Shown piece by piece: positions 7,720-62,439 of a DNA stretch of 64,000 bases; the first letter of the stretch is position 1, and every line of letters starts with the position of its first letter. The notes beneath the pieces were generated by a model. It was given only the letters and a program-made list of their open reading frames with translations, was not told the DNA's origin and made no database searches. This stretch comes from Candidatus Komeilibacteria bacterium (GTDB taxonomy: Bacteria > Patescibacteriota > Patescibacteriia > UBA1558 > 2-01-FULL-52-15): positions 6,018 to 70,017 of the forward strand of contig JAZDLR010000021.1 of NCBI GenBank assembly GCA_043801745.1, in the 5' to 3' direction. The position numbers and the translations under genes are program-made.

Positions 7720-8400
7720 ATGAAAATCAGTAAAAGAATGCAGGCCCAGAAGGCCAAGTTAGAAGCCGGAAAAGTTTATCCCTTAGCCGAAAGCATTGCT
7801 TTGGTTAAAGATACTTCCGGCGTTAAGTTTGATGCTACGATCGAAGTTCACGTCAAATTGGGAATTGATCCGAAACAGAGTGACCAGTTAGTTCGCGCTA
7901 CAGTTGCCTTGCCGCACGGCACAGGAAAATCGGTTAAAGTCGCTGCTTTTGTTCCGGAAGATTTGGTAGCTGAAGCCAAGAAAGCCGGCGCTGACATTGT
8001 CGGCAACAAGGAGCTAATTGAAGAGATCAAGAAAACCGGCAAATGTGATTTTGCCGTGGCTATTGCTACGCCAGATATGATGAAAGATTTGTCGGCTATC
8101 GCCCGTATCTTAGGTCAGAAAGGCTTAATGCCTAATCCTAAAACTGGCACTATTACCACTAAAGTTGGTCAGACGGTAACTGAACTTAAGGCTGGCAAAA
8201 TCAGCTTTAAGAATGATTCTTTCGGTAATGTCCACGTGGTCATTGGTAAGGTATCATTTGACCCGGCTAAATTGACCGAGAACTTTGAGGCTTTTGCTAA
8301 AGCTTTAAAAAGTGTCAAACCGGAAAAGATGAAAGGCATTTACATTAAGGGAATTTATCTGACCTCATCCATGGGACCGGCGATCAAAGTGAGTCTGTAA
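7720..8400 (+). CDS. rplA: 50S ribosomal protein L1
   Basis: 'MKISKRMQAQKAKLEAGKVYPLAESIALVKD...KFDATIEVHVKLGIDPKQSDQ' is canonical L1. I take the start at the internal ATG at 7720. Confidence 0.9.
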   Translation: MKISKRMQAQKAKLEAGKVYPLAESIALVKDTSGVKFDATIEVHVKLGIDPKQSDQLVRATVALPHGTGKSVKVAAFVPEDLVAEAKKAGADIVGNKELIEEIKKTGKCDFAVAIATPDMMKDLSAIARILGQKGLMPNPKTGTITTKVGQTVTELKAGKISFKNDSFGNVHVVIGKVSFDPAKLTENFEAFAKALKSVKPEKMKGIYIKGIYLTSSMGPAIKVSL

Positions 8401-35783: not shown

Positions 35784-36476
35784 ATGCAATATACATTAAA
35801 GGCAGAAAAGCGGGAAATTGGTACGCCGTCAGCTTTGAATGAGCTGCGCGCAGCCAAAAAGATCCCGGGAATTATTTATGGCCACGGTACTGAACCGCTG
35901 ACTATTGCAGTTGATTATTTGGCGTTTAGCCGCTTAGTTACCCAGGCCGGTGAAAGCAGCTTGGTGACCATGGAAATCCCCGGTGTTGAGCCTTTCAGCG
36001 TGCTGATTAAGGATGTTCAATATGATCCGGTTAAGGATAGGGTGATTCATTTTGATTTACACCGCATCCGCATGGATGAAGAGGTGAAAGCCGAAGTTAA
36101 ATTGGTTTTTGTCGGCGAATCCCCGGCAGTCAAAGAAATGGGCGCCAATTTAGTTACAAATATGGACCACGTCAGAGTGGAATGTTTGCCCAAAGATTTG
36201 CCGCACGAGTTATCAGTTGATTTGTCCGGTTTGAAAGAAATTGGTGATGCTATTTCTATTGCTGATTTGAAAATACCAACCGGCGTTAAGGTTGTCGATG
36301 AAGCTGAATTGACCATTGTTTCTGTCATGCATGTGAAGGAAGAGAAAGTTCCTGAAGGTCCGGTGGAAACCGTGGTGGCTGAAGCTGTTAAACAGGGCGC
36401 TGAAGCTGAGCCGGCTGTTGAAGGTGATAAGAAGGAAGGTAAGAGAGAGGAAAAGAAGGAAGGGAAGAAAGAGTAG
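35784..36476 (+). CDS. rplY: 50S ribosomal protein L25 / general stress protein Ctc
   Basis: 'LKAEKREIGTPSALNELRAAKKIPGIIYGHGTEP' with a C-terminal Lys/Glu-rich tail. Confidence 0.85.
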   Translation: MQYTLKAEKREIGTPSALNELRAAKKIPGIIYGHGTEPLTIAVDYLAFSRLVTQAGESSLVTMEIPGVEPFSVLIKDVQYDPVKDRVIHFDLHRIRMDEEVKAEVKLVFVGESPAVKEMGANLVTNMDHVRVECLPKDLPHELSVDLSGLKEIGDAISIADLKIPTGVKVVDEAELTIVSVMHVKEEKVPEGPVETVVAEAVKQGAEAEPAVEGDKKEGKREEKKEGKKE

Positions 36477-36587: not shown

Positions 36588-36805
36588 GTTAACTCCCCTT
36601 GTCACTGAAACTCCCTCTGTCTCCCTCTTGTTAAGAGGGAGAACCTTCTCATAGCGTGCCCCTCTTGAAAAGAGGGGACAGGGGAGTTAGTAAGTCGAAG
36701 CCAGTTTTTCAATAACCCCTCTTAGTCTCCCCTTATACTAAGGGGAGAAACTCTTTATCAGGGTTTCCCCCTCTTAAAGTAAGAGGGGAACAAGGGGAGT
36801 TATTT
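36588..36805. repeat. Two tandem MITE-like hairpin elements (TIR TAACTCCCCTTG...CAAGGGGAGTTA; modules CTCCCC-loop-GGGGAG)
   Basis: TAACTCCCCTTGTC at 36588. Its reverse complement occurs at 36676 and 36793. Internal hairpins CTCCCTCTTGTTAAGAGGGAG and CCCCTCTTGAAAAGAGGGG. Confidence 0.45.
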
Positions 36806-36837
36806 GAGATAGAAAAACTCCGTAAATTTAATAGCGC

Positions 36838-36882
36838 CGCGCTTCTATCGATGTTCTGATAGATGCGCGGCGCTGTGTTTCT
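36838..36882 (-). terminator. Intrinsic terminator of the GC-rich island operon
   Basis: AGCGCCGCGC...GCGCGGCGCT 10-bp stem, then ATTAAATTTACGGAGTTTTT on the minus strand, just after the stop of 36900-37673. Confidence 0.55.
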
Positions 36883-36899
36883 CACCTCGTGAAGAGGTG

Positions 36900-37673
36900 T
36901 TACTCGGCGGTCAGATCGGCCAGGACCTGCCCCCAGTCCTTGCGGTCCTGGCGAACGTCGTCCTGCTTGCCGGTTCCCTTGCAGGTTCTGCACTTGCCCA
37001 CATCTTCGTGGCAGCCATTGCACTCGCCATCGACATACTCGTCGTGGCGCTGGCCGGAGCCGTGGCAGTATTGGCATTTGCCGGAGCCGTAACAGTACTC
37101 ACAGTCCTTCTGGCCGAGAACTTCGCGGTAGAAGGGAGTGTGCACGAACATGACCTTGGCCCCGTTGACCCCGAAGTTGGGCTTGAAGCCCTCACGATAG
37201 TAGGACGTTCCAAGATGATCGATGGCGGCGCTCATCGCGCCCTTATGGTGGTTGGTGTCCGTGACCATGGCCACGAACTTGGCGCCGACTTTGGCCGCCT
37301 TCAGGGCTATGATGAAGCCGTATGGCACCTGCTCGGCGGGATGGTAGGCCTCCGAAGCAAGCGTCTGCCTGCTCATCGGCATCATCATGTCGGTGAGCAC
37401 CACATCGAACGGGAAAGGAACCACCGACTTGGCTTCTGCCTCGCGGTGGGCCTTCCAGAAAGCCTTCCATTCCTCGTCACCACCATTCCGGTCGGGCGTG
37501 GCCGGGAAGCCGGCCTCGGTCATGAGGCGCGTGACGTTCTCGTCGTCGATCTTCTTGGCCATGAGTCCCATGGCAGCATCGAAGGAGTCGACGATGGTCA
37601 CATCGTGACCAGCGAGGGAGTCGCGGGCCGACTGACGATGCATTTCCTTGTCTTCGACCACCAGAATTTTCAT
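36900..37673 (-). CDS. Receiver (REC) domain protein fused to a DnaJ-type (CxxCxGxG)x4 zinc finger; about 60% GC
   Basis: 'MKILVVEDKE' acidic pocket and 'DVVLTDMMMP' phospho-acceptor context. C-terminus 'CEYCYGSGKCQYCHGSG...CNGCHEDVGKCRTCKGTG'. The antisense low-complexity ORFs are rejected. Confidence 0.6.
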   Translation of the reverse strand: MKILVVEDKEMHRQSARDSLAGHDVTIVDSFDAAMGLMAKKIDDENVTRLMTEAGFPATPDRNGGDEEWKAFWKAHREAEAKSVVPFPFDVVLTDMMMPMSRQTLASEAYHPAEQVPYGFIIALKAAKVGAKFVAMVTDTNHHKGAMSAAIDHLGTSYYREGFKPNFGVNGAKVMFVHTPFYREVLGQKDCEYCYGSGKCQYCHGSGQRHDEYVDGECNGCHEDVGKCRTCKGTGKQDDVRQDRKDWGQVLADLTAE

Positions 37674-37899
37674 CTCTTCTCCTCATTGCCCGATCAGGGG
37701 CGTGGGGGTTTACGAACTCGTTGTCTTGAAGTTTATATTAACCGCGCAAAAGCACGGTTGATGTTTAAAGAACTTTTCGGATCACTTGAGCATACTAAGT
37801 TTTAGTTACTATGCTCGAGTGATCCCCCCGTCTAATCTTTCGACTAGACGAGGGGTATTGCTGGCGGTCGCGTTGCGCGGCGCGGGTCATGATGGTCGC

Positions 37900-38313
37900 C
37901 TACTGCTTCATGATGAAGCTTTCGGCCGCCCACTTCCACTGGGGCGTGCCTCTCTTGTAGACTTCCACGAAAGCCCGCGGGATGTACTTCCGGGGACAGG
38001 TATAGTCGCCGGTAAGGGCGTGCCCTTTCCCCCAGTAGTGGATCGAGCCATCATCCTTGATGTGGGCGATGGCGACGATCAGGCCGTCGTTCCGGCGGAG
38101 CAGGTCTCCGACCTGCAGGCTGTCTACCTCGGCTTGAGTGATGCCGTCGGTGGAGTTGACGTCGACTGCGGCGGAGGCCGGCGCCGGGTGGGTGGAGTGG
38201 TTCTTGGTACTGTCGCGAGGCAAGATCCAGATGAACACCAGCACTGCTGCAATTAAGAATATGATCACAGCCTGAAAGGGCGTGAGACCCATATTCTTCG
38301 GGCTCTCTTGCAT
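37900..38313 (-). CDS. Membrane-anchored hypothetical protein, paralog 1 (C-terminal ...AFVEVYKRGTPQWKWAAESF)
   Basis: RBS AAGGAGAAAGAGTC-ATG. TM helix, then a Pro/Ala/Ser linker and a roughly 80-aa domain shared with the next gene. Confidence 0.5.
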   Translation of the reverse strand: MQESPKNMGLTPFQAVIIFLIAAVLVFIWILPRDSTKNHSTHPAPASAAVDVNSTDGITQAEVDSLQVGDLLRRNDGLIVAIAHIKDDGSIHYWGKGHALTGDYTCPRKYIPRAFVEVYKRGTPQWKWAAESFIMKQ

Positions 38314-38357
38314 GACTCTTTCTCCTTCTTGCCCATCAGCTGATGGACGGTGGAAGT

Positions 38358-38741
38358 TTACTGGGCGAAGTACCGTTCGGCAGCCCAGATCCAGCCCGGC
38401 TCACCCTTCTTGTAGACAGCGATGAACCTGGTGTCGACTTGGCCGAGCGGGCAGAGCATGGGGGCCGTGTGGTGGCCTTGGTACTCGATGTTGCCGGTTT
38501 TGAGATTCGACCAACTTGGCCGATACTCCACGACCATTGAGTCGGTAGTCAGGAACAGCTTGCCGGGTGTGAAATCCAGGAAGTCGTTCCTGGTGACCGT
38601 GACGGAATTGACGGCGACCGCGGCGGACACCGGCGCCGGCTGGGTGGGGCGTTGCATGGCCGCTATGACAACCCAGGTTACCAATCCCACAGCTATTGCT
38701 GTGCCTATCATGGCATACGGGCCGAGCATTTTTTGGCTCAC
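38358..38741 (-). CDS. Membrane-anchored hypothetical protein, paralog 2 (C-terminal ...FIAVYKKGEPGWIWAAERYF), GTG start
   Basis: An identical upstream block 'CTGATGGGCAAGAAGGAGAAAG' precedes a GTG at 38741. Same architecture as 37900-38313. Confidence 0.45.
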   Translation of the reverse strand: MSQKMLGPYAMIGTAIAVGLVTWVVIAAMQRPTQPAPVSAAVAVNSVTVTRNDFLDFTPGKLFLTTDSMVVEYRPSWSNLKTGNIEYQGHHTAPMLCPLGQVDTRFIAVYKKGEPGWIWAAERYFAQ

Positions 38742-39183
38742 GACACTTTCTCCTTCTTGCCCATCAGCTCCGTCGGTTGGCGGATGGCTGGGGCGGTGAG
38801 GGTAAATTGAAAACTGATTCCTACTCACACAACTGAAGACAGGAGTTGATTGCTATCAACCAAAGGTCAATAGCATGGGCTTTACCTCTACGAGAGAAGG
38901 AAACCCGGCAAACAAGATTCGGGCAGTAACTAGATAAATCCAGTTGCGGCCACAAATACAAGTTCGCAAAATATCAGCAACCTGCCTCCATCTGTGTGAG
39001 TAGGAACGTTTAGTGGAATTAATCGCGTCAAATCACGTTAAACGTGACTAGCGCGATTTTAGTTTCAAGGAACTGACTTTGAATTAGTCACTTCTAAGCT
39101 TTCAACCAGTTAAAAGTTTAGAAGTGAGGAGGAGGAAAACAGCTGATGCTGTCTGCCTCCTCCTTGTGCCCATACGATCGGGA

Positions 39184-39471
39184 CTAGACCGGGATGAAGT
39201 GGTCGTTGTCCGCGTCGTCCCATTCGTTGGGGTCGCCGCAGGACACGCCGGTGGCGGTCCAGGCGGGGAGGAAGTTGATGGTCACCGGCAGCAGGTCGGA
39301 ACAGGTGTCGGCAGAGACGATTCGGGCCCACCGCCTTTCGATCCGCCGGAGGTGGTTCAGGGTCCAGTCATCAACGCTGTTCCAGAACTTCCACCCCTTC
39401 TCACCACCGAAGCGGTGAGACTGGGGCCTGAACTTCTTTCCGCGGCCGGGCAGTCTGACGAAAACGCGCAT
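39184..39471 (-). CDS. Hypothetical 95-aa Trp-rich protein of the GC-rich island
   Basis: RBS AAAGGTGG-5-ATG at 39471. The antisense ORF is Gly/Val/Pro low-complexity. Confidence 0.4.
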   Translation of the reverse strand: MRVFVRLPGRGKKFRPQSHRFGGEKGWKFWNSVDDWTLNHLRRIERRWARIVSADTCSDLLPVTINFLPAWTATGVSCGDPNEWDDADNDHFIPV

Positions 39472-39651
39472 TTCTGCCACCTTTCTTTTGTGGAGGATGA
39501 CAAAAACCCGTGAAAAAACTAAATTGATCTCAAGGTACACTTTGTCGTATCGAGCGTTGCTCGACAGCGACTCATCTAAACTTACATCTCTTGATATAAA
39601 CTTGGATGAGCGCGCGAGTCCCGAAGGACCTCGCGCGGCGGAGACTAGCAC

Positions 39652-39819
39652 CTAGCGCCGGTTGATGGCCTTGATGATTTCCTGGGCCGAGATGTCGATC
39701 TGAGTGACGACTGCCAGGATTCCGGCAATCACGCCCGGCCCGATCAGGAAGTCGCACACCGGAAAAATCGCAGCGAACATGAAGCAAGTTGCTGACAGGA
39801 AAGCAAGAATGAAGGGCAT
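39652..39819 (-). CDS. Hypothetical 55-aa hydrophobic peptide (MPFILAFLSATCFMFAAIFPVCDFLIGPGVIAGILAVVTQIDISAQEIIKAINRR)
   Basis: Hand-translated. RBS AAGGAGACTATC-ATG. First gene downstream of the consensus promoter at 39899-39927. Not in the supplied ORF track. Confidence 0.35.
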   Translation of the reverse strand: MPFILAFLSATCFMFAAIFPVCDFLIGPGVIAGILAVVTQIDISAQEIIKAINRR

Positions 39820-39898
39820 GATAGTCTCCTTATTGGCGTCGCCCTATGGGCGAGCCGGTCAAGGTACGTCATAAGCTAACCTTAGCCTAGAATATAGT

Positions 39899-39927
39899 AT
39901 TATAGCACCAATTCTAGCCATTGTCAA
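39899..39927 (-). promoter_or_regulatory. Perfect consensus sigma70 promoter (TTGACA-17-TATAAT) driving the GC-rich island operon
   Basis: On the minus strand: cTTGACAatggctagaattggtgcTATAATact, about 70 nt upstream of the ATG at 39819. Confidence 0.55.
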
Positions 39928-39967: not shown

Positions 39968-40005
39968 AGAAAAAGCCCCTGTTTGGGGCTTATTGTTATT
40001 GATTT
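39968..40005. terminator. Hairpin AGCCCC-TGTTT-GGGGCT with T/A-rich flanks; likely terminator of the rpmE-prfA-prmC operon
   Basis: GC stem with T-rich tracts on both strands. Immediately 3' of prmC beyond the MITE. Confidence 0.4.
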
Positions 40006-40010
40006 TTTAA

Positions 40011-40170
40011 TACCTCACCCCAACCCTCTCCTTGAAAAGGAGAGGGAGGATGCGCGGAGGTTGAGTAGAGCGACTAGCTTTATAAATAGCGTTCCTCTCC
40101 TTTTGAAGGAGAGGACAGGCCTGCCCGCCGTAGCTCTGAAAGTAACGAAGAGCGAAGGCGGGTGAGGTAA
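40011..40170. repeat. MITE family A copy 1 (TIR TACCTCACCCC...GGGTGAGGTA; internal CTCTCC-TTGAAAA-GGAGAG hairpins)
   Basis: Terminal 11-bp inverted repeats. Homologous copies at 61644-61824 and 62227-62384; a related fragment at 59225-59300. Confidence 0.6.
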
Positions 40171-44360: not shown

Positions 44361-47300
44361 ATGAAAAAATATTTTCACAAGCTGCAGCGGACACTGACGT
44401 TGCTATCCTTGCTGGCTCTGGTCGTGAGTCAAGCGGGATTGCAATCAGTGCCTTTAGCAGGATTGAACTTGACTAAGAAGGCCCAAGCTCAATTAGCGGC
44501 ACCAGTAATAACTATTGGTGGCATGAAATGGGAAGATTTAAACGGGAATGGCGTGCTAGATAGTGGTGAACCAGGTGTTCAAGGGGTTCAGATTAATATC
44601 AATCAATTGCTTTTAGCTGATGCGCCGTCAATAAGAGGTTTATTTATTCCTACGGCCCATGCTGATTTTGTTTATTCCGCCAGTACCGTGACTGATAGTC
44701 AGGGTAACTATTCTTTTACTGATGTACCTCTGGGCGGTAGCTATGATGTTTGTGAAACCGTACCCTCTGGTTGGCACCAAACCTTTCCGATAAATGCTAA
44801 TAATAATTGTCATCGGATAAATTTAAATCTTTCAGAGACAGAATCAGTGACTGGTGCACCCATCTATGATTTTGGTAATCAACGTAATCAGGCTACTATC
44901 GTTGTTGATAAGATCGTTTGTCCGAATGAATCTGACTTGCCCAATTGGGGCGATCATTCTGGCGGCCCAATTGACGCTAATACCGCCGCTGTCTTTTTAC
45001 GGGAACATAAGGATTGTCATCTGGCTTCCGGATGGAGTTTCCAGTGGGCTTTCAATAATGTTGAGAATCCCGGAGATCAAACGGCAACATCAAGTGATTT
45101 GACTACCTTTGGCCCAACAGATGGCTCTGGTCGGACATCAACCCAGGTAGTACTGGGTGATAAGGACGAAATTAGGGTGCGGGAAGTTTTTCAGTCAGGT
45201 TATATACCGTTTACTGGTGCCAGTACTGCCGATAATGTCAGCGCGGAGATTTACTGTAATGATGATGTTCTGAATTATGATAATTATGATTATATCCGTG
45301 GTGCCAGCGTTGGCAACACATATTATTGTGTAGCCTGGAACGTGGCTCAATTGCCAGCCCAGCAGTGCGGTAATGGTCAGGTAGAGGGTACGGAAGTTTG
45401 TGATGAAGGTACGGTTAATGGTCAGCCGCTACATTGTAACCTTGACTGCAGCGGTAACACTCTACCGGTTTGCGGCAACCAGATTACCGAAAGTGATCCT
45501 TACGGCGCTGAGCAATGTGATGACGGCAATTTGAATGACGGTGACGGTTGTAGCTCAACTTGTCAGCAGGAACAGATTGCCTGTCATTCACCGCTAGACT
45601 ATGTCAATACTGAAGGTGTACTCGGTCCTGATCACGGATTAACTTTGAGCGATGCGGTGATTTTTACCCAGAGATACGAAGCAGCTTTAGGCAGTCACAC
45701 TGGTGATGGTAACTTTGATGCTACGGTTGACGTGAATAATGACGGTGCCATTACTGCAGCTGATTATCTTTGCACTCGGCCTTATTACGCTGCCAATGGT
45801 CCGTACACCTGTCAGCTAGATTGTAATAATATCTGCGTCAATCCTTTGGATTATGACCAAAACTATCAGATTACCTTGAGTGATGGAACTGAATTTACGA
45901 ATTATTACGAGAATAAAACTTATGCCACCTCTAGCGCCAGATATTTGGCTGACCTAAATGGTAATGGCGGGGTTGATTATGGTGATTATCTTTGCTCTTA
46001 TGATCAGCTGGCTATGGCTGATTATCAGTGTCCGATTAAGTGCGCCTCGGTTTGTGGCGATGGCACTATTCAGCCACGTTTAGGTGAAACTTGCGATGAT
46101 GGTAATCATATTGATTTTGATGGTTGCAGTTCTTTCTGCCAGACAGAAACTAATGAATGCCAGGAGCCGAATAAATTGGATTATAATCATGATTATCAGT
46201 TTACCGGCGGTGACGCAGTTATCTTTACCAGTTTTTATGAAGCTGATAATAGTCAGGCTGACGTCAATAACGACGGATTAGTTGATTATGGCGATAAGCT
46301 CTGTGCCAATAAATATTACAGCGCAGCCTTAGCTTATGTCTGTGATATTGTTTGTCCAGACTATACTCCAGTTTGCGGTGACACCCATATAGATGAGGGT
46401 GAACAATGTGATGATGGTAATACCACTAATGGTGACGGTTGTAATTCTAGATGTCAGAATGAACAGCTAATGTGTGTTGGTACTGGTACCTATACTCTGG
46501 ACGCTGATTTTGATAAAGGTACTTTGATCAATGTCGTGCATACTCCGAGCGATCAGTTGCAGTTAAGCAGTGAGATGAAGGCTTTTAACTTCATCTGGGT
46601 AGCCGTTTCTACCAAAGGAACAGTGGTGAAGATAAATACTGACACCGGAGCGATTATGGGCGAATATGCCACTAATCCGGCCTCACATGGCTGGGGCCAG
46701 GGCAATCCTTCACGAACGACAGTTGATAAAGACGGCAGTGTTTGGCTGACTAACCGCAACGATGTTTATGAAGGCGTTGGTTCAGTCATCCACATAGGAT
46801 TGGTGGAAAATAATCAGTGCCAAGACCGTAATGGTAATGGTCTGATTGATACTTCGACTGCCCAGAATGATATTAAGCCCTGGACCACTGCTTCGGTTTC
46901 GCCGGGTGTTGGTACAGCCGAAGATGAATGTATTATTCATTATGTGAAATTACCCAACTCCAGCGGTACTAGACACGTTTCTGTTACTGCCAATAATGAT
47001 GTTTGGGTGGCTGGATTATATTCCAGAAATTTTGATTTGGTAAAAGGTGGAGGTCCTGGAGTACCTGGTTCTGGCACCATTATCCGCAGTGAATCTAGTG
47101 TTGGTTATGGCGGTTATGGTGGTTTAATTACACCGAGCGGCGTGATTTGGTCCTCTAATCCGTTAATGCGCTGGGATACATCTGTACCGCTAGTAGCTGG
47201 AAATTTCCTCGGCTACGGACACGATAGCTATGGTTTATGTATAGATCCGAGTGGTAATGTCTGGAATACCTCACTATCCGGAGACCAAATACGGAAATTT

Positions 47301-48743
47301 GCTCCGGATGGTTCTCTGCTAGGAACATTCGGACATGGAAGCTATTACGCTCAGGGTTGTGCTGCAGCTGCCAACGGTGATATTTGGGTAGCTGGCTCTC
47401 TCTATGATACTGTGGTTGGTCACTTGAAAAATAATGGAACTTTGGTCGGTACTGTATCTGTGCCTTCCGGACCTACCGGCATTGCTGTAGATGCTAATGG
47501 AAAAGTTTGGTCAACGAATTACAATGCCGGCAATGTGACCCGTATAGATCCGTTAGGCGGAGCAATTGGTGGCGATGGGGTAACTCCTATTGGATCAGTT
47601 GATCTTACTACAGTTGGTTTAGGTGGAAATCCTTATAACTATTCTGATATGACTGGCAGTACCTTATCCGGCAGCGCCACTAACGGTACTTGGACAGTTA
47701 TTCATGATGGTGAAGTTTCTCTGCCCTGGGGTAGTTTGACTTGGACTGCTACTGGTTCACTGACTGTTACTGTTGCGACCAGTGAAGACGGTTCTACTTT
47801 TGGTGCGCCCCAGACAATTACTAGCGGTCAGGATCTATCCAGCTTAACCTCGCGTTATCTGAAGATTGTTGTTGCTTTCGAGCGGGAAGTTACTGGTGCC
47901 AGTCCGATTCTCTATGATCTGACAGTTAATAGACTTTGCGATCAGCCGCCGGCACCAAGCTGCGGTAATAGCGTTATTGATGAAGGTGAGCAGTGTGATG
48001 AAGGTGAAGTGAACGGTCAACCGGGACACTGCAATAGTCAGTGCTCAGGCATAACGGAAGCGACCTGCGGGAATACAATCGTTGAAGCCGGTGAGCAATG
48101 TGATGATGGTAATATTAATGATGGTGACGGCTGCTCTGCTAGCTGTCAAAGTGAGCAAAATCCGCCCACACCTCCTCCAACTCCTGGTCCTTCCCGCAGT
48201 GGCGGCGGTGGCGGAGGTGGTATGACAACCTTAGCCAGTTTGCTGGTTGCTAAGACAGCTTCTTTGCCTTTCGTTTCACCCGGCTCACAGGTTACCTTCA
48301 CAATTTCAGTTACCAATAATGGTAATGTGATTGCTACCAATGTTTCCTTGGATGATTCTTTACCGGCCGGATTTACTTTTGCTGATGGTGGCGGTACGGC
48401 CAAGACTTGGACCTGGGACACGATTGGAGTTGGTCAGACTGTAACGGTATCCTATTTAGTTAATGTTAGCTCTACCGCGTCTCTGGGCGTTTATTCCAAC
48501 ACAGCCGTGGTTAAATCCAATGCCGGAATCGTCTCAGCTCAAGGTTCGGTAAATGTTGAGGTCCGCAGCCCGCAGGTTCTGGGAGTGGAAACTGAAGTCC
48601 CGGCTAGCGCGGAAAAAGTCAAAGTTCTAGGCTTTGAAGCACTGCCTGATACTTCCGGTGACTGGAGTTACTTAGGAATCTTTGGCGCTTTGATCGTCAT
48701 GGGCCTAAGTATTTTCTACGGCCGTAAAGCTTTCCAAGACTAG
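44361..48743 (+). CDS. Giant (1460 aa) LPXTG-type (LPDTSG) cell-surface protein: signal peptide, 5-6 Myxococcus-type Cys-rich repeats (DUF4215; CGxG...E.CDDGN...GDGCS..C), dockerin/EF-hand-like Ca-binding loops, NHL-like beta-propeller, DUF11 domain, sorting signal
   Basis: Repeats such as 'CGNTIVEAGEQCDDGNINDGDGCSASCQSEQ'. 'DVNNDGAITAADYL'. Propeller 'GSVWLTN/NDVWVAG/GDIWVAG/GKVWSTN'. C-terminal 'LPDTSGDWSYLGIFGALIVMGLSIFYGRKAFQD'. Confidence 0.8.
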   Translation: MKKYFHKLQRTLTLLSLLALVVSQAGLQSVPLAGLNLTKKAQAQLAAPVITIGGMKWEDLNGNGVLDSGEPGVQGVQININQLLLADAPSIRGLFIPTAHADFVYSASTVTDSQGNYSFTDVPLGGSYDVCETVPSGWHQTFPINANNNCHRINLNLSETESVTGAPIYDFGNQRNQATIVVDKIVCPNESDLPNWGDHSGGPIDANTAAVFLREHKDCHLASGWSFQWAFNNVENPGDQTATSSDLTTFGPTDGSGRTSTQVVLGDKDEIRVREVFQSGYIPFTGASTADNVSAEIYCNDDVLNYDNYDYIRGASVGNTYYCVAWNVAQLPAQQCGNGQVEGTEVCDEGTVNGQPLHCNLDCSGNTLPVCGNQITESDPYGAEQCDDGNLNDGDGCSSTCQQEQIACHSPLDYVNTEGVLGPDHGLTLSDAVIFTQRYEAALGSHTGDGNFDATVDVNNDGAITAADYLCTRPYYAANGPYTCQLDCNNICVNPLDYDQNYQITLSDGTEFTNYYENKTYATSSARYLADLNGNGGVDYGDYLCSYDQLAMADYQCPIKCASVCGDGTIQPRLGETCDDGNHIDFDGCSSFCQTETNECQEPNKLDYNHDYQFTGGDAVIFTSFYEADNSQADVNNDGLVDYGDKLCANKYYSAALAYVCDIVCPDYTPVCGDTHIDEGEQCDDGNTTNGDGCNSRCQNEQLMCVGTGTYTLDADFDKGTLINVVHTPSDQLQLSSEMKAFNFIWVAVSTKGTVVKINTDTGAIMGEYATNPASHGWGQGNPSRTTVDKDGSVWLTNRNDVYEGVGSVIHIGLVENNQCQDRNGNGLIDTSTAQNDIKPWTTASVSPGVGTAEDECIIHYVKLPNSSGTRHVSVTANNDVWVAGLYSRNFDLVKGGGPGVPGSGTIIRSESSVGYGGYGGLITPSGVIWSSNPLMRWDTSVPLVAGNFLGYGHDSYGLCIDPSGNVWNTSLSGDQIRKFAPDGSLLGTFGHGSYYAQGCAAAANGDIWVAGSLYDTVVGHLKNNGTLVGTVSVPSGPTGIAVDANGKVWSTNYNAGNVTRIDPLGGAIGGDGVTPIGSVDLTTVGLGGNPYNYSDMTGSTLSGSATNGTWTVIHDGEVSLPWGSLTWTATGSLTVTVATSEDGSTFGAPQTITSGQDLSSLTSRYLKIVVAFEREVTGASPILYDLTVNRLCDQPPAPSCGNSVIDEGEQCDEGEVNGQPGHCNSQCSGITEATCGNTIVEAGEQCDDGNINDGDGCSASCQSEQNPPTPPPTPGPSRSGGGGGGGMTTLASLLVAKTASLPFVSPGSQVTFTISVTNNGNVIATNVSLDDSLPAGFTFADGGGTAKTWTWDTIGVGQTVTVSYLVNVSSTASLGVYSNTAVVKSNAGIVSAQGSVNVEVRSPQVLGVETEVPASAEKVKVLGFEALPDTSGDWSYLGIFGALIVMGLSIFYGRKAFQD

Positions 48744-48950: not shown

Positions 48951-49089
48951 AAAATTAGTAGGCGTTGATTAAACATTAGCGTTCTTACTTTAATCATATC
49001 AACTTCGGCAAAAAATTAACTACGGAAATTCAAAAGGACCCGTCCAGTACAGCGAGATGCTGCACCGGACGGGCCCAAGATGATTCGGG

Positions 49090-49947
49090 CTAGTTGCCCG
49101 GTTTCGGAGTCATACAGTTGATGGCCTCGATGTCGTCGAGGAACCGGTTGAGGAGTCTCACCTTTTCCTCCATCCGCTTGTGCGCCTGGAACCAGTTCGG
49201 CCACTTGGCATTGATCTGAATTTCAGCGGTGTCGAGATCTTCAGCTAGGGCAGCGATCGCGGCGTTCTTGGCGCCGGCCCGCTTCAGCTGATCGGTCATG
49301 CTGGCAACTTTACTCAGATCAGCCAACAGGCCCTGACATTCCATCTGGCTGCACTGAAAATCGGTTCTGGTCGTTCCCAGCTGCAGCTGCAGGTCTTCTA
49401 GCTGAGCCAGGAGACCCTGTTTGTCTTTCCAGGAAGCAACCTGCTGCCGGAACTCGTCGGCCGTGATGATGCCGGCCGCGTAGCGGCAGATCAAATTTCC
49501 ATTGACCTGGCCGTGCAGGTTGGCATCTTCCTTCTCCGCCTCGGTGTAGAGCGCGCGGGTCGTGAAGAGATCCTTGCCGATCTGGATTTCCAGATGGCCG
49601 TATCTGACGATCTGGAGTAGACGGTCAGCAGCCGGGACCCAGCCCCGGTCCAGGTTGATGCTGAACTCCATCTCAGAAGCTTCAACCGGAGCAATGAAAT
49701 TGTAGCGGTAAGAAGATGTGTTCTTGCCCGAACCTTCGGACACAATCACCTCGAAGGCAACCAGATGGTCACAGTTTTCCGTCGGCCGAGCAATGGTGAA
49801 GCTGTTGATCTCTTCAGTTCCAGGTTGAGCGCTGCAATTGCAGCTGGAACCGGAGAACCTCAGACGATAACTCTTCTTGGTCACCAGCTGAAGAACGTCC
49901 GTCGTTGAGGGTGACCTTTCGATAACCACCACTTCATTGGCTTTCAT
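49090..49947 (-). CDS. Hypothetical protein (GC about 55%, foreign-looking), C-terminal coiled-coil-like region
   Basis: 285-aa ORF with RBS AAAAAGGAGTACGGCC-ATG and a long 5'UTR from a strong promoter. No recognisable family. Confidence 0.5.
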   Translation of the reverse strand: MKANEVVVIERSPSTTDVLQLVTKKSYRLRFSGSSCNCSAQPGTEEINSFTIARPTENCDHLVAFEVIVSEGSGKNTSSYRYNFIAPVEASEMEFSINLDRGWVPAADRLLQIVRYGHLEIQIGKDLFTTRALYTEAEKEDANLHGQVNGNLICRYAAGIITADEFRQQVASWKDKQGLLAQLEDLQLQLGTTRTDFQCSQMECQGLLADLSKVASMTDQLKRAGAKNAAIAALAEDLDTAEIQINAKWPNWFQAHKRMEEKVRLLNRFLDDIEAINCMTPKPGN

Positions 49948-50069
49948 GGCCGTACTCCTTTTTTGTCCCCGTAGGGGAGCTTTGGAAGGTACTGGCGACA
50001 GTGCGAAGCAGCTGTCTGAACGGCTATGGCCCGCCGTCTTACAGGGCTCCTCCTAGTTGAGGATTTTGC

Positions 50070-50098
50070 AGTATACTATATAGTTAAATATTTGTCAA
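50070..50098 (-). promoter_or_regulatory. Strong sigma70 promoter (TTGACA-17-TATACT) for the GC-rich ORF 49090-49947
   Basis: Minus strand: gTTGACAaatatttaactatatagTATACTgc. Confidence 0.55.
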
Positions 50099-61643: not shown

Positions 61644-61824
61644 ACCTCACTCCCGCCTGCTAACGCCTGAGCGTAGCGATGGCGGGCAGGCCAACCCTCT
61701 CCTTAGAAAAGGAGAGGGAGGATGCACTCCTAAACAGGGTTCCTCTCCTTTTTAAGGAGAGGACAGGTGAGGTAATTAAAATAACTCCGAGGACAGCTCG
61801 CCCGCCTCTGGTGAAGTGAGGTAA
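61644..61824. repeat. MITE family A copy 2
   Basis: ACCTCACTCCC...GTGAGGTAAT termini. Internal CTCTCC-TTAGAAAA-GGAGAG and CTCTCC-TTTTTAA-GGAGAG hairpins. Confidence 0.55.
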
Positions 61825-61851
61825 TCTAAAAAATTGCTAGGCAATTTAATA

Positions 61852-62250
61852 ATGACAAAATTATTTAATAAACCAGAAGAGACATTTAAACGTCGAATCT
61901 TGAGAGTCAATAATCCATTGGCTGAATTAAGAATGTGGTACTTATTGCGAAATAGACGATTAAATAATCAAAAATTTCGTCGTCAGTATGGTATTGGTTC
62001 GTTTGTTGTGGATTTCTATTGTCCTGAAGCAAAGTTAGTAATTGAGATCGATGGTGCTACTCATAGTACTAAAGGGGAGCTTGAAAATGACCAGAAACGT
62101 CAGGATTACATAGAATCCTTAGGACTAACTGTTATACGCTTTACGAATGAAGAGGTATATTACAGACCTGACAGAGTATTAAGAAAAATACGGAGAGTTT
62201 TGAAACAATTGAAGAATTGTTTGAATACCTCATCCCAACCTTCTCCTTGA
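61852..62250 (+). CDS. DUF559/Vsr-like endonuclease-domain protein
   Basis: 'FRRQYGIGSFVVDFYCPEAKLVIEIDGATHS...DQKRQDYIESLGLTVIRFTNEEV'. The last 8 codons and stop lie inside MITE copy 3. Confidence 0.65.
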   Translation: MTKLFNKPEETFKRRILRVNNPLAELRMWYLLRNRRLNNQKFRRQYGIGSFVVDFYCPEAKLVIEIDGATHSTKGELENDQKRQDYIESLGLTVIRFTNEEVYYRPDRVLRKIRRVLKQLKNCLNTSSQPSP

Positions 62251-62384
62251 AAAGGAGAAGGGGGTAGCGCGTGGCGGAAAAGAGCGACTAGCCATTAATT
62301 TACGTCCCTCTCCTTTTTAAGCCAGCCCCGAGCGAGGTCGAGGGGGAGAGGACAGCTTGCCCGCCTCTGGTGGGGTGAGGTAAT
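62227..62384. repeat. MITE family A copy 3 (TACCTCATCCC...GGGGTGAGGTAAT)
   Basis: TIRs and hairpin modules homologous to copies 1 and 2. Overlaps the 3' end of the DUF559 gene. Confidence 0.55.
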
Positions 62385-62439
62385 TAAAATAATTTTTCCT
62401 CTAGATTTTTTCGCTAGTTTATGCCATAATCCAGGCACT

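Follow-up and report, generated by a model that had tools for sequence, protein, structure and literature searches.

A GC3-rich accessory islet with an atypical receiver-fold gene in a Candidatus Komeilibacteria contig

The stretch of DNA analysed here (64,000 nucleotides of contig JAZDLR010000021.1 from a Candidatus Komeilibacteria bacterium, called the window in the following) carries an islet of five open reading frames (ORFs), all on the minus strand. These are h55, W95, the paralogs par1 and par2, and a gene encoding a receiver-fold protein that includes a zinc module (REC-ZnF, called the receiver gene below). This segment of ~3.1 kb is probably an accessory islet acquired horizontally and made of some three units, which would come from a pool of genes rich in GC at third codon positions (GC3) and common to genomes of the Candidate Phyla Radiation (CPR). 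A previous description, made from the letters of the DNA only (the sequence-only reading), had proposed a horizontally acquired operon of five genes, possibly a self-contained signalling or defence-like module. A horizontal origin would indeed be the most economical reading of the composition. The comparison with related loci shows that these five genes form a patchwork; they do not make up a conserved system of signalling or defence.

Composition of the islet

The GC content calculated along the window is 0.55-0.64 between 36.9 and 39.4 kb and 0.41-0.48 on both sides. The islet as a whole has a GC of 0.60 versus 0.44 in its flanks. The sharp break announced by the sequence-only reading, ~60% against a background of ~43%, is thus found again in the windowed GC, and also in GC3. 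This latter is 0.80 for the receiver gene, 0.80 for par2, 0.77 for par1, 0.86 for W95 and 0.75 for h55 (the range given for the five ORFs is 0.71-0.86), and 0.38-0.50 for rodA, rplY, prmC and prfA. The GC at first and second codon positions (GC1 and GC2) is similar in the genes of the islet and of the flanks, which indicates that the rise of GC is synonymous. A survey of the ORFs of the whole window revealed a GC3 of 0.70 or more only in the five ORFs of the islet and in a singleton located at 49090-49947. The segment is compositionally foreign, and this foreign composition is restricted to the five ORFs.

The five ORFs encode 55, 95, 156 (127 from the GTG codon at a duplicated ribosome-binding site, RBS), 137 and 257 amino acids. 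They are likely to be genuine coding sequences since GC3 exceeds GC1, which itself exceeds GC2, in the named frames. The 55-amino acid hydrophobic peptide, the 95-amino acid Trp-rich protein, the two paralogs and the 257-amino acid protein initially described were all retrieved in this way, both as ORFs and by their coding composition.

The receiver protein and its family

The structure model of the 257-amino acid protein confirms a (beta-alpha)5 flavodoxin-like receiver fold, as expected from the CheY-like receiver proposed before. This fold is established by structure only, the matches to sequence profiles being below cutoff. Thus, PF00072 gives 15.7 bits versus a cutoff of 30.2 (E = 0.017) and covers only residues 3-38, a precomputed match to this family exists for 4 of the 120 homologues listed, and the NCBIfam model CpdR gives 15 bits versus a cutoff of 180. 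A profile of the family compared with the PDB did not retrieve any chain below E = 0.059.

The residues expected in a receiver pocket are found at the ends of strands, the positions of E7-D8 and T138 being assigned by secondary structure and not by superposition. E7-D8 comes after beta1 (strand 2-6); at least 90% of the sequences retain D8. D95, located at the end of beta3 (strand 91-95), is invariant in 50 sequences and is placed on CheY D57 by hhalign, which aligns FDVVLTDMMMP with YGFVISDWNMP of CheY. T138, at the end of beta4 (strand 133-138), is also invariant and begins a family-specific T-D-T-N-H-H motif that is nearly invariant. The switch Lys of CheY (K109, in K-P-F) is replaced by a His (H178, in F-V-H-x-P-F) in 103 of the 104 scorable homologues, and a nearly invariant K245 precedes alpha5. 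A helical insertion (residues ~40-85), absent from 29 of 96 homologues, separates alpha2 from beta3. The C-terminal helix alpha5 (244-257, RKDWGxVLxDL) completes the receiver fold.

The protein therefore recalls single-domain response regulators such as CheY, DivK and CpdR, with which it shares the acidic pair, the beta3 Asp within a D-x-x-M-P motif, the beta4 Thr and the lack of any attached output domain. However, it differs from them by its scores below the Pfam and NCBIfam thresholds, the His found in place of the switch Lys, the TDTNHH motif and two lineage-variable insertions (the alpha2-beta3 helical one and the zinc module, in the beta5-alpha5 loop). Furthermore, no kinase gene is adjacent to it in any locus examined. 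Because of the His-for-Lys change and of the TDTNHH motif, a classical phospho-switching does not seem assured.

The zinc module contains eight Cys arranged in four CxxC pairs between residues 191 and 231. Three of these pairs are exact CxxCxGxG motifs (C191, C200 and C228), and the C218 pair lacks the GxG. The claim of four CxxCxGxG/CxxC pairs similar to those of DnaJ holds for the four CxxC pairs and for a DnaJ-like double zinc site. The profile of the DnaJ family (DnaJ_CXXCXGXG, PF00684) gives no significant match (E = 0.29, with 11.8 bits versus 32.7). Foldseek finds weak local matches to viral DnaJ Cys-rich proteins (probability 0.84). The module has in common with the Cys-rich domain of DnaJ/Hsp40 the eight Cys in four CxxC pairs and a spacing that fits two interleaved zinc sites. 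Whereas the DnaJ domain separates the G/F domain of a chaperone from its substrate-binding domain, the module is inserted in a loop of a receiver. This likeness is one of pattern, together with a weak structural resemblance, and not membership of the family.

Since the zinc region lies between beta5 and the helix that completes the fold, it represents an insertion in a loop, not an output domain fused to the receiver. Of the 104 scorable homologues, 56 carry four CxxC pairs in the beta5-alpha5 insert, 16 carry three, 9 two, 3 one and 20 none, these last having a linker of only 5-20 residues. The module is thus optional, being reduced to one to three pairs in 28 of the 104 proteins and missing from 20. 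The receiver followed by four CxxCxGxG as a new output architecture, suggested by the sequence-only reading, is not supported, the C-terminal helix itself belonging to the receiver.

It could be proposed that the protein is a single-domain CheY-like switch whose Asp pocket (E7/D8, D95, T138) has been kept. The alpha4-beta5-alpha5 face would change shape once D95 is phosphorylated or binds a metal, and the predicted two-zinc module carried by the beta5-alpha5 loop would offer a binding surface to a partner. A TrmB-type winged helix-turn-helix (wHTH) protein, encoded divergently, would probably fill the role of partner or regulator in the older branch of the family; its gene is not adjacent in the window.

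At least 178 homologues of the receiver gene were found at E <= 1e-3. Almost all of those that are named belong to Patescibacteria/CPR (Falkow-, Moran-, Lipton- and Parcubacteria); some are labelled "CheY-like" by JGI, and NCBI labels them "hypothetical". A protein 68% identical to that of the window is encoded by a 5.2-kb contig binned as a Diapherotrites archaeon (DPANN), which reflects either a cross-domain transfer or a mis-binning. The close relatives (56-71% identity), which possess the zinc module, are encoded by isolated genes, each having its own promoter and terminator, and the neighbourhoods of these genes are unrelated: between SET and peptidase S66 genes, topA and dprA, greA and DUF1905, or MFS and FAD oxidase genes, or beside IS1595. 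In this latter case (locus L005), the gene abuts the IS1595 transposase gene. At locus L001, a promoter of its own (TTGACG-17-TATAAT) and a ~185-nt leader precede the gene, which is followed by a classic terminator; only the coding sequence (CDS) shows the rise of GC.

The homologues of L001 and L005 (Falkowbacteria and Moranbacteria; 7885-8003 in both loci) share a conserved 5' leader, which forms a long hairpin around TAGCGCATTGGA and in which the Shine-Dalgarno sequence is paired with a 5' segment (z = -5.0 and -6.4). A possible element of translational control, this leader was not found in the window.

The window contains a second self-contained GC3-rich (0.70) cassette (49036-50098, minus strand), whose layout is that of the singleton relatives of the receiver gene. 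It includes a near-consensus promoter (TTGACA-17-TATACT, 50098-50070), the 285-amino acid ORF 49090-49947, for which Pfam gives nothing significant, and an intrinsic terminator with an 18-bp stem (49076-49036).

The comparison of 21 non-redundant loci reveals that the GC of the receiver gene (0.49-0.63) exceeds that of its flanks (0.34-0.60) in 18 of them, with a mean difference of +0.083 (Wilcoxon p = 1.8e-5). In the only host with a GC of 0.60, the receiver gene is poorer than its flanks. The GC of the family thus remains close to 0.55-0.60, independently of that of the host. A GC3 of 0.7-0.8 is found even in relatives sharing ~30% identity and originating from genomes of 0.39-0.40 GC (L016 and L017).

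Such a GC3 could also be that of long-resident genes, in which either selection acting on the mRNA or GC-biased gene conversion at a hot spot of recombination would keep it high. The values of L016 and L017, hard to explain by many independent and recent transfers, are in favour of such a residence, as is the enrichment of L001, which stops at the CDS borders. However, translational selection is unlikely because the ribosomal and translation genes of the window do not have a raised GC3 (only 0.45-0.53). Furthermore, four of the five genes of the islet are near-orphans, and the position of the receiver homologues differs from one genome to another. Long residence is therefore an unlikely explanation.

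An assembly chimera, i.e., a contaminating high-GC fragment joined into a low-GC contig, would account for the sharp compositional steps. The source is a metagenome-assembled genome represented by a single contig in the databases, which would leave room for such an artefact. A chimera is nevertheless extremely improbable because GC-rich receiver genes surrounded by low-GC housekeeping DNA are found again in many independent assemblies, one of them a closed genome of 1.09 Mb (CP064989.1). In addition, both junctions are intergenic, with host-type repeats outside them, and the layout of promoter and terminator is of host type.

Besides composition, the loci also differ by their neighbours. A gene encoding a TrmB-type wHTH protein is located divergently upstream of the receiver gene in 10 of the 21 loci, these being loci of the family's more divergent half. 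Six of them have it directly next to the receiver gene (L011, L016, L017, L020, L029 and L030), and in the four others (L014, L018, L022 and L025) it is 0.9-2.7 kb away. This conserved association, of which the sequence-only reading makes no mention, suggests that a TrmB-receiver gene pair may be ancestral in CPR genomes; the pairing is absent from the window. No paper linking CPR, TrmB and response regulators, or receiver domains of Patescibacteria and GC content, was found in the literature.

Organisation of the islet

The coordinates of the features of the islet and of its borders are given in Table 1. The textbook promoter of the sequence-only reading is confirmed, as it is the sole perfect TTGACA-N16-18-TATAAT sequence of the window, for a chance expectation of 0.05. 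Compared with shuffled sequence, each of the gaps between units has a much stronger fold. The strong hairpins and the spacers divide the islet into about three units.

Table 1. Location of the genes, signals and repeats of the islet and its borders (window coordinates; MFE, minimum free energy; z, z score; TIR, terminal inverted repeat; MITE, miniature inverted-repeat transposable element; TM, transmembrane)
Feature	Coordinates	Strand	Details
MITE-like repeat	40011..40170	.	TIR ACCTCACCC...GGGGTGAGGTA, two CTCTCCTT hairpins; between prmC stop codon and terminator (39973-39991)
Sigma-70-type promoter TTGACA-17-(TG)TATAAT	39899..39927	-	12/12 match, TG extension
h55, 55-aa peptide	39652..39819	-	ORF; two hydrophobic segments, AAGGAG RBS; GC3 0.75 versus ~0.45 in host genes
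Structured spacer h55/W95	39520..39651	-	Three stacked hairpins; MFE -53.8 kcal/mol, z = -4.5
W95, 95-aa Trp-rich ORFan (V1846_04455)	39184..39471	-	6 Trp; GC3 0.86
Terminator-like hairpin 3' of W95	39127..39164	-	GGAGGAGG...CCTCCTCC + T-rich tail; 17-nt arms, 88% complementary, z = -3.6
Low-GC (~0.42) spacer W95/par1, 385 nt	38742..39126	-	MFE -148 kcal/mol, z = -9.5
par1, 127-aa membrane-anchored protein	38358..38741	-	GTG 38741 set by duplicated RBS block; longest ORF to 38828
par2, 137-aa paralog	37900..38313	-	TM helix 12-30, Pro/Ala/Ser linker, beta-rich domain + C-terminal helix 60-135
Two adjoining strong hairpins par2/receiver gene	37780..37855	-	MFE -53.3 kcal/mol, z = -6.6
REC-ZnF, 257 aa (V1846_04440)	36900..37673	-	Atypical stand-alone receiver; E7-D8, D95, T138-DTNHH, H178 for Lys
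Zinc module, residues 191-235 of REC-ZnF	36969..37103	-	C191/C194, C200/C203, C218/C221, C228/C231 (read from sequence)
Terminal hairpin, putative terminator	36833..36874	-	17-nt arms, 94% complementary, z = -7.5; small hairpin 36883-36899 precedes
Two tandem units of a related hairpin repeat	36588..36805	.	CCCCTCTT + CTCCCCTT stems; between rplY and islet

In the first unit, the consensus promoter would drive two tiny ORFans, h55 and W95, up to the terminator-like hairpin. The second would consist of the structured low-GC spacer followed by the locally duplicated membrane-anchored pair, par1 and par2. The third would be the receiver gene, atypical and stand-alone, followed by a terminal hairpin of its own. 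The units would have been drawn from a GC3-rich gene pool circulating among CPR genomes.

The 385-nt spacer holds an element of 189 nt with terminal inverted repeats of 26 nt (38818-38843 and 38981-39006) and a weak promoter-like site (39083-39056, 9/12). This spacer may represent a MITE of no described class, or else a structured RNA. No second copy of it was found in the window, and none of the spacers of the islet matches Rfam at E <= 1. At the 3' end of the islet, the intrinsic terminator announced by the earlier description is a very stable hairpin as regards its stem; its tail is A/T-mixed, without a clean U-run.

Except for the receiver gene, the genes of the islet seem to be near-orphans. 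When the five proteins were compared with the families of Pfam, PHROGs, NCBIfam and PADLOC, every match stayed below threshold. Nothing significant was found for h55 in these scans, the large cluster database not having been searched with this peptide, and W95 has no homologue beyond itself among 5.8 billion protein clusters.

The start of par1 is placed at the GTG in position 38741, for a protein of 127 amino acids, because a 31-nt RBS block is duplicated in front of par1 and par2. The two proteins share 33% identity (E = 6e-15). In the AlphaFold2 model of par2, a disordered linker connects a TM helix to a beta-rich domain of ~75 residues, whose pLDDT is ~85-90. The paralogs are thus membrane-anchored proteins with a TM segment, a linker and a domain, as they had been described, except that their RBS blocks are 94% identical and not fully so. 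A relationship to YajC was considered for them and rejected, the matches being too weak to use (NCBIfam E = 0.008, hhalign probability 17%).

A full HMMER profile search of 1.8 billion representatives retrieved only two members of the par family outside the window, P0122 and P0125, the remaining matches being par1 itself, under a shorter gene call, and two repeat proteins regarded as spurious. The genes of P0122 and P0125 are also GC3-rich (0.74-0.76). P0125, a distant member of the family, is encoded (L031, 173-1835) within a GC-rich (0.54-0.60) cluster of ORFs for small membrane proteins of 96, 68 and 71 amino acids (GC3 0.69-0.80). This cluster adjoins fusA and rpsG (GC3 0.48-0.50) and echoes the islet of the window.

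These data can be confronted with the hypothesis of one self-contained signalling or defence operon expressed from the consensus promoter, in which the membrane proteins would be the sensors and the receiver-zinc protein the effector. The common strand and codon bias of the five genes, the single outstanding promoter and the absence of clean U-runs behind the internal hairpins are in agreement with it. However, the structured low-GC spacer of 385 nt splits the array, and strong hairpins are found in every spacer between units, so that a single five-gene operon is at most putative. Furthermore, no relative of h55, W95, par1 or par2 was found near the receiver homologues (tblastn, 0 of 24 loci), neither of the two outside members of the par family is shown to adjoin a receiver gene, and W95 is without any homologue. 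Since the close relatives of the receiver gene stand alone as well, the claim of a self-contained five-gene module was not upheld.

The defence-like role fared no better. PADLOC did not find any complete system and gave one weak partial match, to PDC-M01B (E = 3e-5), between residues 97-239 of the receiver protein and positions 220-357 of the 366 of the profile. A survey of Bacillus cereus describes PDC-M01 only as a candidate that is unpublished and whose detections duplicate those of Septu (PMC11811056). The match, which counts in favour of the operon hypothesis, may reflect Cys-rich similarity only. No relatives were found among phages or viral contigs either. Altogether, a dedicated signalling or defence operon is a very unlikely interpretation of these five genes.

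Setting and origin of the islet

The islet occupies a convergent gap between rplY (L25/CTC, 35784-36476, plus strand) and the prfA-prmC operon (42082-40180, minus strand), whose terminator hairpin (39991-39973) lies just upstream of the promoter of the islet. The neighbours rplY, prmC, prfA and, farther left, ftsW/rodA were verified, which agrees with the location proposed in the sequence-only reading, between rplY and the terminator of the prmC operon.

Hairpin repeats are present on both sides of the islet, as this reading had also noticed, and it had taken this bracketing by MITEs as a sign of acquisition. The repeats are real; they cannot serve as evidence of acquisition, being dispersed, unlike at the two ends and, for the right one, situated within the 3' region of prmC. 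The right copy belongs to an ACCTCAC...GGTGAGGTA family, and the left repeat consists of two units of a different hairpin sub-family. The families flanking the islet have further copies at 16.7, 61.7 and 62.3 kb, those of the right-hand element being clear at 61645-61785 and 62230-62390. As MITEs or repetitive extragenic palindromic (REP) sequences, these repeats are of ~150 nt, with terminal inverted repeats, internal hairpins and several intergenic copies. However, they are not specific to the islet, and neither target-site duplication nor matching autonomous transposase was found for them. No direct repeat at the flanks of the islet exceeds chance. A composite mobile unit bounded by MITEs was therefore rejected, its ends not matching, flanking direct repeats being missing and the copies being dispersed.

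Two copies of the right-hand element also bracket a low-GC DUF559 gene (Vsr-like endonuclease fold, 61834-62250), and the copy at 62230-62390 overlaps the 3' end of this gene.

Other modes of integration were discarded in the same way. No R''(RYYYAAC)...R'(GTTRRRY) pair was found by regex on either strand between 36.7 and 40.0 kb and no integrase is adjacent, so the islet is not an integron cassette array. The window does not contain any tRNA gene that could have been a site of integration.

The islet might also be a decayed remnant, or "moron"-like cargo, of an integrative element or CPR phage that lost its recombinase. Small ORFans, membrane peptides, autonomous promoters and terminators and an atypical composition are typical of such cargo. 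Two homologous loci point in the same direction. In L025 (3823-12786), the receiver homologue belongs to a run of 8 kb comprising about 12 small genes, for the most part ORFans on the same strand, one of which encodes a helix-turn-helix similar to sigma-70 region 4; this run ends with a large serine recombinase and may be an integrative element. In L005, the homologue abuts the IS1595 transposase gene, as mentioned above. However, no recombinase, att-like direct repeats or tRNA were found at the islet. The search for relatives in IMG/VR contigs, INPHARED phages and PLSDB plasmids did not retrieve anything, which led to the rejection of a phage or plasmid origin, and the PHROG matches are all insignificant. 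Mobile or acquired DNA is also usually AT-richer than its host. This remnant hypothesis is possible, though doubtful.

The layout can rather be compared with genomic islets of acquired ORFans, from which it has the atypical composition, the ORFans, the location in a convergent gap and the autonomous promoter and terminator signals. Unlike most of these islets, it is GC-richer than its host, it has no integrase, tRNA or direct repeats, and one of its genes belongs to a large CPR-wide family whose GC is independent of the host.

Several points weigh against a horizontally acquired islet of about three units. It is marked neither by a recombinase nor by a tRNA or a target-site duplication, and its homologues are absent from the viral, phage and plasmid collections cited above. 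The empty site was not found either, a scan of 185k species genomes with prmC having retrieved only distant Bacteroidota and an exact-match look-up having found no record of the rplY protein elsewhere. Since no genome with an empty site was found, it is from composition alone that the insertion can be deduced. Host-independent GC3 could result from selection or GC-biased gene conversion and not from repeated transfer. As regards the units, the internal hairpins lack clean U-tracts and read-through across all five genes from the single strong promoter may occur. As regards the receiver, its switch Lys is absent, a crude H-box regex found no histidine kinase motif in the window, and phosphorylation of D95 is hypothetical.

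A wider hypothesis can also be put forward. The receiver and par families, together with their small-ORF neighbours, could belong to an unrecognised pool of self-contained promoter-ORF-terminator cassettes moving among CPR and possibly DPANN genomes, and retaining a GC3-rich codon usage of their own whatever the GC of the host. These cassettes would be carried by an undiscovered GC-rich CPR virus or plasmid vector, or would result from frequent recombination with GC-biased gene conversion. The receiver, with its His in place of Lys and its TDTNHH motif, would then represent a new functional class of receiver-fold protein, ancestrally paired with TrmB regulators, and not a classical phospho-switch. 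This extended proposal is rather unlikely and is offered as a speculation.

Elsewhere in the window, a gene located at 44361-48743 (plus strand) encodes a predicted surface protein of 1460 amino acids with repeated Cys-rich CDDGN...GDGC motifs, as read from its translation. At its C-terminus, an LPDTSG motif precedes a hydrophobic stretch and a tail of basic residues, an arrangement that resembles a sortase signal.

CPR bacteria have tiny genomes with few recognisable signalling proteins. The annotation gained here is that of a receiver-fold family of at least 178 members, nearly limited to CPR and mostly recorded as "hypothetical". This family is a candidate entry point to the regulation of CPR bacteria, especially through its recurrent pairing with TrmB. 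It is also unusual that the receiver family has a GC3-rich composition independent of the host, as do unrelated genes for small proteins in similar islets. Such a pattern could be the mark of a mobile gene pool that these symbionts share, or of a process driven by recombination in them.

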